Assembly: GCA_964448115.1 (NCBI GenBank)
Contig: CAYUVA010000006.1
Coordinates: 43,608 to 107,607, forward strand
DNA length: 64,000 nt
Direction of reading: 5' to 3'
Source: an uncultured bacterium
Lineage (GTDB): Bacteria > CAYUVA01
Part shown: positions 39,366 through 53,500 of the stretch, piece after piece
Numbering within the stretch: the first letter of the stretch is position 1
How the letters are laid out: each line of letters opens with the position of its first letter
The notes under the pieces: generated by a model
Told to the model about the DNA's origin: nothing
Seen by the model: only the letters and a program-made list of their open reading frames with translations
Databases searched by the model: none
Program-made: the position numbers and the translations under genes

Positions 39366-40205
39366 ATGCGAGAGATCCATGTAGATGAGATAGCGAAGCT
39401 GGTTGCGCCACTGACCTACCAGGCGAACTACTACCTTGGTGAAGATGTACTCAATTCCCTTAAAGAGGGGCTGGAAAAGGAAATAAGCCCTGCTGGCAAG
39501 GATATCTTCAGGCAGCTTATCAAGAATGCAGAGATCGCCCGTGATGAGCAGATGCCGATCTGCCAGGACTGCGGTCTGGCGGTCTATTTTGTCGAGCTGG
39601 GCGTGGATGTGCATATAGTCGGCGGCACCCTGCGCGATGCATTGGAGCAGGCTACACGAGTCGGCTACAAGGAGGGCTACCTGCGCAAATCTACCTGCGA
39701 CCCATTCACCAGAAAAAACATAGGGGACAACACCCCCAGTATTATTCATCTCGAGCAGGTTCCCGGCGACAAGATAAAGATCATCTTTGCTCCCAAGGGT
39801 GGTGGCAGCGAGAATATGAGCCGGGTTACAATGTTGGCACCTTCACAGGGAATTGAGGGAGTAAAGAAATTCGTAGTCAATCGCGTGTCAGAAGCTGGCG
39901 CTAATCCATGTCCTCCGATAGTAGTCGGCATCGGTGTCGGGGGTACATTCGAGCGCTCGGCTTATCTTGCAAAAAAGGCGCTTATCCGTGAGTTCGGACA
40001 GAGAAATCCCGAAGAGCGTTTCGCAAACTTCGAGCGCGAGGTCTGGGAGGAGTGTAACAAGCTCGGCATCGGTCCACAGGGGCTGGGTGGCAGGTTCACC
40101 GTCCTGGAAGTATTCATGGAGGTGGAGCCTTGTCATATCGCAAGCCTACCCTGTGCGGTAAATATAAACTGCCATGCGACAAGACATAAGGAGATATTGA
40201 TATAG
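39366..40205 (+). CDS. Fumarate hydratase class I / Fe-S hydro-lyase, alpha subunit (TtdA/FumA N-terminal type)
   Basis: A 279-aa protein with the motifs ...DEQMPICQDCGLAVYFVELG... and ...KGGGSENMSR.... No beta subunit gene is adjacent. Confidence 0.75.
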   Translation: MREIHVDEIAKLVAPLTYQANYYLGEDVLNSLKEGLEKEISPAGKDIFRQLIKNAEIARDEQMPICQDCGLAVYFVELGVDVHIVGGTLRDALEQATRVGYKEGYLRKSTCDPFTRKNIGDNTPSIIHLEQVPGDKIKIIFAPKGGGSENMSRVTMLAPSQGIEGVKKFVVNRVSEAGANPCPPIVVGIGVGGTFERSAYLAKKALIREFGQRNPEERFANFEREVWEECNKLGIGPQGLGGRFTVLEVFMEVEPCHIASLPCAVNINCHATRHKEILI

Positions 40206-40268
40206 GCTTTAGGCTTTAGGCTTTAGGCTTTAGGCTTTAGGCTTTAGGCTTTAGGCTTTAGGCTTTAG
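40204..40268. repeat. Tandem heptamer array (AGGCTTT)x9, beginning at the fumA-alpha stop codon
   Basis: Nine perfect 7-nt units were read directly. Confidence 0.95.
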
Positions 40269-40630
40269 TTTTTGGAAGAGCGAAGTGAGGCAATTAGACC
40301 TTGGAGAACCCTGCAAGCTTCTTGTTGAAGAACCGATAATTTTCTATGCTGGTCGCGTTTCAGGTAGCCAAGATCTTTTGACAAATCAAGTAGATAGGCA
40401 ATCTCGAAAAGAGAACCAAGTGAAATTCCTAGGAAGTGTACATAATCGCGTTGTGAAAACCTGGCACTACCTTCGACTATATTTGTTGGAACTGAAACAG
40501 CAGCGCGCCTTAGCTGAGATGTCAAACCATACAACTCTTCCTTTGGAAAGTATTGTGTTTCCTTGTAGATCTCTTTCACCAAACAATCGGCAAGTTCGAA
40601 TGCTTTTAGCCTATGATAATCCCTGGGCAT
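40265..40630 (-). CDS. Four-helix-bundle protein (23S rRNA intervening-sequence protein family)
   Basis: A 121-aa protein. The motif ...RRAAVSVPTNIVEGSARFSQRD... matches the family signature. Confidence 0.75.
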   Translation of the reverse strand: MPRDYHRLKAFELADCLVKEIYKETQYFPKEELYGLTSQLRRAAVSVPTNIVEGSARFSQRDYVHFLGISLGSLFEIAYLLDLSKDLGYLKRDQHRKLSVLQQEACRVLQGLIASLRSSKN

Positions 40631-40689
40631 ACTTGAAAACTAACATAAATAAAGAAAAAAACAACAAAAAACTATTTTCCCAAAAGCAA

Positions 40690-40731
40690 AAAGCCAAGAG
40701 CCTAAAGCCTAAAGCCTAAAGCCTAAAGCCT
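40690..40731. repeat. Inverted copy of the heptamer array: (AAAGCCT)x4 perfect plus 2 degenerate units
   Basis: It is the reverse complement of the 40204-40268 array, so together they bracket the four-helix-bundle gene. Confidence 0.9.
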
Positions 40732-40739
40732 TAAAAACC

Positions 40740-42392
40740 ATGCGATTGCCTTTTAAACGATATGGGCGACCATTCTTGGTACTGCTGGGCATTGCCCTAA
40801 CGCTCGGAATAGTGCTTAGAGTTATGGGGCTTGGCTGGGGGATCGGACCCGATCTGTTTCACCCCGATGAGTGGAAGATCGTCAACGATGTGATCCTGAT
40901 TAACGATGGTAATTTCAAGCTCGGAGACTACAATTATCCGAGCGGATTTCACTATATTTGCTCGCTGGTAACTTTCATAGCTGCCAAGGTTGGCATAATC
41001 TGGGAATCCCTGTACAGTCCTCATATTCAATTACTCTGTCGCTGGATGACCATTTTGTTCGCCATGGCGAGCATAGTATTTATAGCTCTTTGCGGAGCGA
41101 GGCTTTATTCATGGCGAGTTGGTGCTTTCTCAGCCCTCTTTTTAGCCATTGCCACTATCCATGTAGTGCACTCGCATTACTGCACGGTTGATGTTGCAGC
41201 CACCGCCTGGATTCTATTCGTGCTTTATATCTCCACTTTTATCCTGGAAAAACCGAGTATGAAGCATTATATCTGGGCGGGTATCGGGGCTGGATTGGCA
41301 GCAGCCACCAAGTACAATGCTGGTCTGGCAGTAGTTATGCCTATAACAGCACATTTATTGAACTCGATCGCCGGCGATAGCCTCAATTATAAGCTGAAAA
41401 GCTTATTCAGGGCATTATTTTCATTCCGCCTGGTGGTCTTGGGATTCGTTGCCCTGATTGCCTTTATCGCGCTGGTTCCCTATGCGGTGCTTGACTTTCA
41501 GTGGGTCATAGTTGATGGCATGATCAAGCAGATACGCCAAGCCAAGGAGGGACCGGACTTCATGCCATACATGGATAAACCGCCCGGCTGGTATTATTAT
41601 CTAATTGAATTACTCCCCATAAGCATGGGGGCGCCGCTTTTAGCCCTATGCCTACTTGGCGGAATGATAACCCTCACCCGCTGGCGAAGGGCTGATATCA
41701 TCCTTTTGTCGTTCTTGGTGCCTTATTATCTGGGGCTTGGGTCAGCAAGCCTGATGTTCATTCGCCACGCGTTGTTTTTAGTCCCCATCCTGGTGTTATG
41801 GGGAGGTATAAGCTCGGATTGGTTGATAGGCATCCATGAAAAGTCGAAGAATAAGCTGGTCGCTTATGTTCCGATTACCCTTCTCGCCATGGTGCTCATC
41901 TATTCATTGGCACATTCGCTAGCTCACTCGCTGCTGTTTGTGCGCAAGGACACCAGGGATCAGGCAATGGAATACCTGGTTCAGTGCTACGATCCCCTGA
42001 CACCGATCGGTGTTATGATAAGTCCAGTAGGTCTTGATCGCTCAGATAAGCCTGCCTTGCATGAATTCTTTGATAATATATGTTTAGGATATTACCTACA
42101 GGAGATCTTCGAGTATAAGCCAGAAGTAATGGTATTTAGCAATTATGACTACCGACAGATCTTGCGTATGCACCATAAGCTAAAGCGTAGCGAGTGGCCG
42201 CACCAGCGCGATATGGTCTGGGAAGCTGACCTTTGGAGGATATTTCTCGCTGAAAGGTTCGATGGATGGTGGGAGGAAGCCAGGTTAGAGCGCAGGGCAA
42301 CCTTGCTTGGCATGGATTTCTCCGCTGATTGGATACCGCACGACTGGATGTACCTTAACCCAACAGTTCATATATTTAGACGAGATAACTGA
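40740..42392 (+). CDS. GT-C membrane glycosyltransferase, PMT/ArnT-like (family 39/83-like)
   Basis: A polytopic protein. The first-loop motif FHPDEWKIVNDV is present. Confidence 0.6.
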   Translation: MRLPFKRYGRPFLVLLGIALTLGIVLRVMGLGWGIGPDLFHPDEWKIVNDVILINDGNFKLGDYNYPSGFHYICSLVTFIAAKVGIIWESLYSPHIQLLCRWMTILFAMASIVFIALCGARLYSWRVGAFSALFLAIATIHVVHSHYCTVDVAATAWILFVLYISTFILEKPSMKHYIWAGIGAGLAAATKYNAGLAVVMPITAHLLNSIAGDSLNYKLKSLFRALFSFRLVVLGFVALIAFIALVPYAVLDFQWVIVDGMIKQIRQAKEGPDFMPYMDKPPGWYYYLIELLPISMGAPLLALCLLGGMITLTRWRRADIILLSFLVPYYLGLGSASLMFIRHALFLVPILVLWGGISSDWLIGIHEKSKNKLVAYVPITLLAMVLIYSLAHSLAHSLLFVRKDTRDQAMEYLVQCYDPLTPIGVMISPVGLDRSDKPALHEFFDNICLGYYLQEIFEYKPEVMVFSNYDYRQILRMHHKLKRSEWPHQRDMVWEADLWRIFLAERFDGWWEEARLERRATLLGMDFSADWIPHDWMYLNPTVHIFRRDN

Positions 42393-49308: not shown

Positions 49309-49333
49309 TCTTTGTGTCCTTGTGCCTTTGTGG
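49309..49333. repeat. Copy of octamer-repeat motif TCTTTGTGTCCTTGTGCCTTTGTGG
   Basis: Same motif family as 1621-1668. Confidence 0.5.
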
Positions 49334-53403: not shown

Positions 53404-53500
53404 GGTCGTGGCTCTGATTTTGCTATCTTTGTGCCTTTGTGATTTAATAATCATCGAATTTCGCACTCTTTCTTCTTTTCGCCTTTGCGTGTTTGCGTGA
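53404..53500. repeat. Composite repeat: GTCGTGGCTCTGATTTT + CTTTGTGCCTTTGTGA (53427-53442) + CTTTGCGTGTTTGCGTGA (53483-53500)
   Basis: It matches motifs at 1621-1668 (15 of 15 nt CTTTGCGTGTTTGCG) and the GGCTCGGAT family. Confidence 0.5.

Follow-up and report, generated by a model that had tools for sequence, protein, structure and literature searches.

A putative intervening-sequence-type cassette outside rRNA with microsatellite arms, and an apparently undescribed bracket architecture across its gene family

The 64-kb stretch of DNA considered here (hereafter the window) comes from a contig of an uncultured bacterium (CAYUVA010000006.1, positions 43,608 to 107,607 of the forward strand) and contains a fumarate hydratase alpha gene (fumA) followed by a co-directional gene for a membrane glycosyltransferase. 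The entire gap between these two genes is occupied by a compact element, in which a single small gene, assigned by profile matches to the 23S rRNA intervening sequence (IVS)/four-helix-bundle family and antisense to both neighbors, is bracketed by two arrays of a heptameric repeat in inverted orientation (Table 1). The first unit of arm 1, a perfect AGGCTTT array, starts at the TAG stop of fumA (40203-40205), and the TAA stop of the cassette gene lies inside its last unit. Arm 2 runs in the order AAAGCAA (from 40683), AAAGCCA, AGAGCCT and then four perfect AAAGCCT units, with positions 40690-40731 comprising the last six, and stops 8 nt short of the start codon (ATG) of the glycosyltransferase gene. 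On the coding strand of the cassette gene arm 2 reads AGGCTTT and is the 5' arm, and arm 1 reads AAAGCCT and is the 3' arm; thus, the gene is closely preceded by an array and closely followed by the reverse complement of that array. An original prediction made by reading the DNA without database searches had described a perfect array running from the fumA stop codon, a reverse-complement array of four perfect and further degenerate units and, between them, an AT-rich opposite-strand ORF of this family, all of which were recovered by Tandem Repeats Finder (TRF), composition and profile searches. The arrays are not due to chance: the 14-mer AGGCTTTAGGCTTT occurs 15 times in the window with up to two mismatches, against 0.66 expected from shuffles, 14 of these occurrences falling in the two arms, and a pattern search found no further AGGCTTT array elsewhere in the 64 kb.

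The assignment of the gene to the 23S-IVS/four-helix-bundle (S23p/Avd-like) family is based on strong profile matches. The 121-aa open reading frame (ORF) matches PF05635 (23S_rRNA_IVP) with an E-value of 1.1e-32 (112.8 bits, cutoff 33.8), its residues 8-110 covering positions 3-105 of the 106 in the profile, and TIGR02436 (four helix bundle protein) with an E-value of 4.3e-32 (110.6 bits, cutoff 24). It is the sole family-matching long ORF between the arms, in a scan that did not take in an overlapping 144-aa ORF on the plus strand (40285-40719). Its translation includes ...VPTNIVEGSARF..., and the conserved motif of the family, GxxRxxxSxxxNxxE (Zhang and Ye 2013, PMC3936711; Lin et al. as cited there), is represented in ...SQLRRAAVSVPTNIVEG... 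by RxxxSxxxNxxE, with Q instead of G at the first position. The fold that typifies the family is a four-helix bundle assembled into a homopentameric toroid, and it is only predicted for this protein; by sequence similarity the nearest solved structure is that of Xanthomonas XCC0516 (PDB 2GSC, E 7.9e-21), followed by 2RLD (7.4e-05). We recovered 3963 homologs, the best of which is 65% identical; many of them are on contigs of 1-2 kb, as would be expected if the repeats break assemblies. An exact-protein look-up returned no identical protein on record, a local hidden Markov model search no second copy of the gene in the window, and PADLOC no anti-phage defense match for the cassette. The interior of the element has a GC content of 39% and a third-position GC content (GC3) of 0.36, as against 48-52% and 0.55-0.60 in the neighboring genes, and this lower value suggests a foreign origin for the cassette interior.

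The two arms can pair with each other in 12 registers, the longest of which extends over 55 nt at 89% complementarity, in keeping with the stem potential above 40 bp that had been predicted. The duplex of the arms alone is calculated at -80 to -83 kcal/mol as RNA of either strand, and when the 556-nt minus-strand RNA of the element is folded (-177.7 kcal/mol, z = -7.85 relative to shuffles) the closing stem is formed by the arms. Hence, by pairing, duplex energy and fold z, the element has the complementary termini, with a long predicted stem, that typify an IVS. It differs from one in location, being flanked by fumA and the glycosyltransferase gene rather than lying at helix 9, 25 or 45 of a 23S rRNA gene, and neither an rRNA nor any other Rfam family was detected at threshold in the 64 kb of the window. 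The AT-rich spacer that separates the start codon from arm 2 is a possible promoter or leader region of the cassette gene; no obvious Shine-Dalgarno sequence was seen in this spacer (40631-40682) ahead of the start at 40630. The glycosyltransferase gene (ATG at 40740-40742) is likewise without a recognizable Shine-Dalgarno sequence, and its translation start would sit directly 3' of the predicted long stem; fumA has GGGAGG.

Table 1. Coordinates of the cassette and its flanking genes in the window
Feature	Position	Strand	Basis
Fumarate hydratase alpha, class I (two-subunit type)	39366..40205	+	PF05681 1e-109, NF004885 397 bits
Arm 1, (AGGCTTT) x 9.4, period 7, 100% matches	40203..40268	+	TRF
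Four-helix-bundle gene, 121 aa, intact, full length relative to profile	40265..40630	-	PF05635, TIGR02436
AT-rich spacer, ~22% GC, from start codon to arm 2	40631..40682		composition
Arm 2, 3 degenerate + 4 perfect AAAGCCT	40683..40731	+	TRF
Membrane glycosyltransferase, 550 aa, PMT_2/GT-C type	40740..42392	+	PF13231 3e-09

The bracket seen in the window recurs around homologous genes. We sampled 80 homologous loci from contigs representing one genome per species, with phyla, as given in the record titles, that include Planctomycetota, Omnitrophota, Acidobacteriota, Elusimicrobia, Myxococcota, Calditrichota, Nitrospirota and the candidate phyla radiation (CPR), among others. Within 300 nt of the gene, arrays of period 7 or 8 make up 13.2% of the sequence, as against 0.97% over the remainder of these loci, a 13-fold enrichment, and same-period arrays are present on both sides of the gene in 46 of the 75 loci with full flanks. 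In 36 of these 46 two-sided loci the units on the two sides are reverse complements of each other (in some rotation, with at most one mismatch). A test independent of TRF gave a comparable picture: 63 of 73 loci have at least one 9-mer common to the upstream flank and the reverse-complemented downstream flank, with a mean of 6.8, whereas flanks paired across different loci have a mean of 0.37; among control positions in the same loci, three or more common 9-mers were found at 42 of 417. Likewise, in local alignments of the flanks the inverted orientation scores better than the direct one in 70 of 78 loci, with a median arm of 39 nt at 88% identity.

The complementarity is locus-specific in its sequence. 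The 39 complementary loci, the window included, display 36 distinct units (the period is 7 in 26 cases, 8 in 12 and 9 in one), which amounts to covariation of the two arms on a large scale. Where units vary, the pattern of variants in one arm mirrors that in the other, and stretches of 27-39 nt that take in differing unit variants match exactly in inverted orientation. This suggests that one arm served as the template for the other or that both arose recently by copying. Median copy numbers in the complementary loci are 4.4 and 4.6, with a maximum of about 18; hence the flanks in the window, which had been thought unusually long and perfect, are at the upper end of a family-wide range with their 9.4 perfect copies but are not unique. 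A weak polarity is apparent, in that the 5' arm has more G than C in 24 loci as against the reverse in 10. In many loci no more than 2-30 nt separate the upstream array from the start codon, and the arrays occupy the leader and trailer of the gene within operon spacers; the median gap to the ORFs on either side is 82-87 nt. The possibility that units are selected for containing stop codons was rejected, with only 12 of the 39 units carrying one on either strand. Many further heptamer or octamer arrays with other units lie in nearby intergenic regions of eight of the loci (L017, L020, L028, L031, L055, L060, L074 and L076), and another locus (L069) has four four-helix-bundle genes in tandem. 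As judged from these comparisons, complementary arrays flanking the gene are a trait of the family across many phyla, with the unit differing from locus to locus. In the full-text literature, with subscription-only papers outside the scope, we found no paper tying this gene family to flanking complementary tandem arrays, the exception being a remark on heptamers in Coxiella, and the bracket architecture appears to be undescribed as a general rule.

Complete plasmids provide comparisons between filled and empty sites. A tblastn search recovered 26 plasmid records, mostly from Nostocales, and inverted heptamers surround the gene in plasmids of Nostoc edaphicum, Geminocystis, Nostoc punctiforme and Trichormus variabilis, with examples such as (AGTAGGG)7.9 paired with (TCCCTAC)4.9 and units of the TCAGGAG type. 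In the Nostoc elements the upstream array comes as close as 2 nt to the start codon and contains an AGGAG Shine-Dalgarno sequence. Between nrdA and nrdB, Calothrix NIES-4105 has a spacer of ~40 nt where Nostoc edaphicum has the succession array-gene-array. In plasmids of rep_cluster_1671, with flanks that are 98% identical, PCC 7120 pCC7120beta, N. linckia and six others among the plasmids listed have an empty spacer of 13 nt, whereas Trichormus and Scytonema carry a 428-nt insert, the latter with two upstream units fewer than the former. The sequence GTAAT is found on both sides of this insert (L101/L106) and once in the empty site (L104/L105; alignment A2), and this pair may represent a 5-bp target-site duplication. 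Plasmids of the pNPUN02 type either carry the element in a 3-nt spacer or have this spacer empty; no convincing target duplication was found at this filled site, at the nrdA-nrdB one or at the junctions in the window. The arrays are missing from all three empty sites, and the host loses no more than a few bases. Thus, in Nostocales plasmids the arrays and the gene are gained or lost together as a unit of ~430 nt in operon spacers of 3-40 nt, which accords with the mobile IVS-like cassette proposed in the original prediction. A further comparison, of the filled site in Calothrix PCC 7716 with NIES-4105, was set aside as the spacer is too diverged for the boundaries to be placed. In Pseudanabaena galeata plasmid pPg_01 a more complex element between cas6 and cas4 (L098) consists of (GCTTTTA)x5, 47 nt, (AAAAGCT)x15.6, the gene and (AAAAGCC)x14; the gene is preceded by a hairpin and followed by an array in direct orientation with respect to the nearer of the two upstream arrays.

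The length of the arrays varies as well. An identical 147-aa Armatimonadetes protein (P0108; L087-L096) is found in the same context in ten samples, with 8.7, 9.7, >10.4 or 13.7 upstream units and 3.8, 4.8 or 5.8 copies of a downstream 14-mer depending on the sample. Together with the Scytonema and Trichormus plasmids, these elements display the slipped-strand variability that had been anticipated: array copy number is polymorphic in nature in homologs with an identical protein. Both gain or loss and copy-number polymorphism are observations on homologous elements. Two of the P0108 scaffolds have N gaps inside the array, and the neighbors of this element include TumE, a nucleotidyltransferase/HEPN pair and DUF433. 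For the window, an independent Logan assembly (SRR15988951), in which FumA is 100% identical, contains one contig that ends 27 nt into the AGGCTTT array and a second that begins within the AAAGCCT array. Both array junctions are therefore real, while the copy numbers in the window come from one full assembly, the second being broken at the arrays, so that the assembly check bears out the junctions and not the array lengths, which are not spanned there. These junctions and the presence of the same bracket in finished plasmids, which cannot be artifacts of metagenome-assembled genomes, rule out an assembly artifact.

To this we can add a view from the side of the arrays. An exact search of metagenome contigs for (AGGCTTT)x4 gave at least 120 loci; among the 120 loci listed, 97 have the array in one orientation and 23 in both, and many of the latter are hairpins without a gene, their arms 20-166 nt apart and mostly arranged as AGGCTTT...AAAGCCT. 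As arrays without the gene predominate among the matches listed, arrays must also exist independently of the cassette, and the stand-alone ones are either independent elements or remnants. Also among these matches, as assigned by eye from the translations, are an inverted AGGCTTT/AAAGCCT pair around a 99-aa membrane protein resembling cytochrome oxidase subunit IV, after an ORF resembling subunit III, another inverted pair around an 81-aa coiled-coil ORF, and several arrays after a tRNA-synthetase-like gene (L131 2074-2625); the two pairs with cargo other than a four-helix-bundle gene are at L159 4405-4810 and L198 715-1137. In the window itself the octamer CTTTGTGC is present in 2.9 copies at both 1651-1673 and 49310-49332, in distant intergenic spacers downstream of minus-strand genes, with related TTTGCGTG repeats nearby (1621-1640 and 53484-53499), and it also forms an array of 7.1 copies in a homologous locus (L033, 3095-3149). 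The CTTTGTGC arrays in the window may belong, as solitary arrays, to the same world of repeats as the arms of the cassette.

Weighing these results, we lean, with some reserve, towards the interpretation that the feature is a selfish cassette of the IVS type, about 530 bp long and situated outside rRNA, whose arms would form a register-tolerant RNA stem of about 50 bp, probably cut by RNase III. A transcript crossing the element would carry both arms; the likeliest one here would be a read-through from fumA to the glycosyltransferase gene, and since the two are co-directional such a transcript would carry both arms together with the antisense of the cassette gene. The arms would then pair to form a helix of about 45-55 bp, and because both are tandem repeats this helix could form in many registers and would survive expansion or contraction of either arm. 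By analogy with the homologous IVS of Coxiella, RNase III would be expected to cut the helix, and the cut would free the RNA of the cassette and split apart the cistrons on either side, with slippage keeping the arrays both homogeneous and variable in length.

Several observations weigh against this interpretation. The original prediction had treated RNase III-cleaved stems as established for the family; this holds for the rRNA IVS (PMC4990558), but for stand-alone copies we found no report, and cleavage there would be an extrapolation from rRNA IVSs. A promoter scan detected no consensus sigma-70 site inside the element. With respect to orientation, 43 of the 80 loci have the gene co-directional with both neighbors and only six have it antisense between co-directional neighbors, as in the window, with 18 arranged otherwise. 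A minority of arrays are direct, including those of 2 of the 46 two-sided loci and those of the Armatimonadetes element, which has (GGTCCAA)n upstream and (AGTCCAAGGTCGAT)n downstream, and about a third of the loci have no clear array pair. Moreover, mismatches between the arms have no bias compatible with G-U pairing (44 on the sense strand, 48 on the antisense and 94 transversions), and the complementarity could equally be kept at the DNA level; this comparison does not separate an RNA-level from a DNA-level role of the arms. Finally, among the matches listed in the array-first search a four-helix-bundle ORF lies beside only 3 of the 72 arrays whose flanks are 500 nt or longer on both sides, so that the association is one-directional: the gene predicts arrays, and arrays do not predict the gene.

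The foremost alternative is that the arms act mainly at the DNA level, as terminal inverted repeats or hairpin ends of a non-autonomous transposon whose enzyme is encoded elsewhere, with the gene as cargo or helper and the RNA pairing as a by-product. The presence/absence polymorphism, whose boundaries coincide exactly with the outer array edges, the GTAAT pair with its resemblance to a target duplication, the occurrence of related elements with similar arms at different loci, the foreign GC content, the lack of an RNA-specific wobble signal in the arm mismatches and, among the matches listed, the gene-less inverted pairs reminiscent of miniature inverted-repeat transposable elements (MITEs) are all consistent with it. 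However, no transposase lies within or beside the element, the second and third filled sites and the window show no visible duplication, and the 36 units in 39 loci rule out a single sequence-specific transposase, so that recognition would have to be structural; the prevalence of co-orientation (43 versus 6) and the Shine-Dalgarno sequence inside the array rather suggest a role in the transcript. As the main explanation we consider it possible but not probable, although it is compatible with the RNA-level model and both may be true.

A more far-reaching version of the selfish-cassette interpretation can be envisaged, in which the array-bracketed cassettes are a widespread, unrecognized mobile class: the Avd-like protein would be their own mobility or RNA-chaperone factor, spread would proceed through hairpin-ended RNA excised by RNase III, and heptamer arrays would be the footprints. 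If true, propagation might involve, for instance, recruitment of a host reverse transcriptase, as by Avd in diversity-generating retroelements, solitary or gene-less heptamer arrays, including the cyanobacterial short tandemly repeated repetitive (STRR) sequences, would be footprints or miniature derivatives, and the classical 23S rRNA IVS would be just the case of insertion into rRNA. We regard this proposal as doubtful in its entirety.

Another alternative is that the arrays are protein-binding or phase-variable regulatory microsatellites, their units being bound by the four-helix-bundle protein or a host factor, and that changes in copy number tune the expression of the cassette gene and its neighbors. 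The related Avd protein is a nucleic-acid-binding cofactor, and nucleic-acid binding by such a relative would favor this idea, as do the copy numbers that differ between natural populations with an identical protein and the position of the arrays directly on the start and stop codons of neighboring genes. In Geobacter and Beggiatoaceae, too, heptamer arrays have been proposed to be regulatory (PMC2700814, PMC4679880). Nevertheless, binding here is putative, and regulation would leave unexplained why the arms are reverse complements in 36 of 46 loci while the unit varies freely; furthermore, arrays of the same unit are mostly without such a gene nearby among the matches listed. This explanation is accordingly an unlikely one.

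That the gene merely happens to lie between two arrays, in host genomes rich in intergenic heptamer microsatellites, is more unlikely still. It is true that 69 of the 72 (AGGCTTT)>=4 arrays examined among the matches listed have no adjacent four-helix-bundle gene, that several homologous loci have many other heptamer arrays nearby with other units, and that one inverted pair flanks the cytochrome-oxidase-subunit-IV-like gene. Chance would not, however, account for the lack of any other AGGCTTT array in the 64-kb window, the 13-fold enrichment beside the gene, the locus-specific complementarity (mean 6.8 versus 0.37 common 9-mers) or the loss of the arrays together with the gene at all three empty sites. 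The idea that the gene encodes the Avd accessory protein of a diversity-generating retroelement can be practically dismissed: the weak similarities to bAvd (PF22296, 24 bits), NF033474 (22 bits) and phrog_3206 (1.4e-06) fall far below the cutoffs of 40 bits for PF22296 and 80 for NF033474 while the IVS-family models give more than 110 bits, and the neighbors are the unrelated metabolic and envelope genes fumA and the glycosyltransferase, with no reverse transcriptase or template/variable repeat pair adjoining.

The flanking genes pose a separate question, as it had been suggested that the cassette sits where the fumarase beta subunit gene would be expected and may have displaced it. In two relatives with ~65% identity the beta subunit (PF05683) directly follows alpha, in the order malic enzyme, alpha, beta and succinate dehydrogenase, and the next-best FumA after the window's own match is 68% identical. 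Neither a Pfam scan of ten candidate ORFs nor tblastn with two real beta proteins detected a fumarase beta in the 64-kb window, and alpha is therefore an orphan within it. To this extent the suggestion stood; displacement itself is unsupported, because no remnant of a beta gene was found at the locus, synteny upstream is not the same and homologous cassettes are clean insertions into very short spacers. Upstream of fumA in the window are a cyclase gene and the ccm genes for cytochrome c biogenesis, the usual tricarboxylic acid cycle genes being absent from the neighborhood, and all three filled/empty comparisons among the homologs were clean additions to a spacer of 3-40 nt without loss of a host gene.

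The feature thus appears to be an IVS-type cassette outside rRNA with microsatellite arms, and a point of entry to an apparently undescribed architecture that extends across its family. The origin, mobility and function of ORF-bearing rRNA IVSs and of S23p have been open questions since the early 1990s, and these have been studied almost solely in a few pathogens. A cassette found outside rRNA in many phyla offers thousands of natural replicates, with clean pairs of filled and empty sites, for the study of movement and processing. It illustrates a design principle whereby a stem built of tandem repeats pairs in any register and tolerates slippage. Such cassettes split operons (cas, nrd and, here, fumA to glycosyltransferase) and break short-read assemblies at the arrays, and our results suggest them as a possible source of some of the heptamer microsatellites that bacterial genomes contain in unexplained excess.

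Comparison with known systems places the element among several of these, each of which it resembles in part. With Avd of diversity-generating retroelements it has in common a distantly related four-helix-bundle fold family, while the protein in the window has no adjacent reverse transcriptase or repeats. MITEs, and repetitive extragenic palindromic (REP) sequences and their doublets (REPINs) with the REP-associated tyrosine transposase (RAYT), are like the cassette in their short length, inverted ends, intergenic insertion and occurrence of filled and empty sites, to which one possible 5-bp target duplication and the gene-less hairpin versions may be added; unlike them, the cassette has tandem-repeat ends with an element-specific unit, no known transposase and as cargo a four-helix bundle without a known catalytic motif. 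Cyanobacterial STRR sequences are intergenic tandem heptamer arrays. Unexplained arrays of this kind have been described as GGGGA(T/C)T in Nostoc, in Xanthomonas, as TAACTGA in Beggiatoaceae and in Geobacter (PMC4692102, PMC4679880, PMC2700814), and a citing paper mentions the heptamer repeats of Calothrix PCC 7601. Like the cassette arms, the known arrays are intergenic, of period 7, variable in copy number and often abut start codons, and the Nostocales elements are built of such known heptamers; they differ in being described as direct repeats with no cargo gene and no inverted partner.

Closer still are the relatives of the gene itself. Stand-alone four-helix-bundle genes belong to the same family and occupy the same kind of short operon spacers (cas6-cas4, cmr3-cmr2 and nrdA-nrdB); 18 genes of the TIGR02436 family were reported within cas operons with no mention of repeats (Zhang and Ye 2013, PMC3936711), and family genes are also known in rRNA insertions of CPR bacteria. 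In the papers searched in full text the stand-alone genes are treated as being of unknown function, with a possible link to nucleases, and none mentions complementary arrays. The ORF-bearing 23S IVSs of Coxiella, and also of Leptospira, Brucella and Xanthomonas, have a gene of the same PF05635 family with inverted terminal arms around one small ORF and a GC content below that of the host, as in the window element. They differ in lying in rRNA rather than between two protein-coding genes, and the gene in the window is antisense to its flanking genes, with the RNase III cut being predicted only. The IVS of Coxiella burnetii, which is inserted in helix 45 of the 23S rRNA, measures 428-444 nt and has inverted repeats forming a 28-bp stem (Warrier et al. 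2016, PMC4990558), a size class like that of the window element with its ~530 nt including the arms and 423 nt between them. It is cut by RNase III in vitro, with ends that map to the middle of the stem, and in its 5' region two to three tandem GACAGAT heptamers and a degenerate one precede the S23p start codon, their number varying between strains and the 5' RNase III site coinciding with the start of the first repeat (PMC4990558). The window element differs in its near-pure microsatellite arms of 9.4 and about 7 units, as against two to three in the 28-bp stem, but the presence of heptamers at that stem means that the experimentally dissected member of the family already displays the array feature in miniature.

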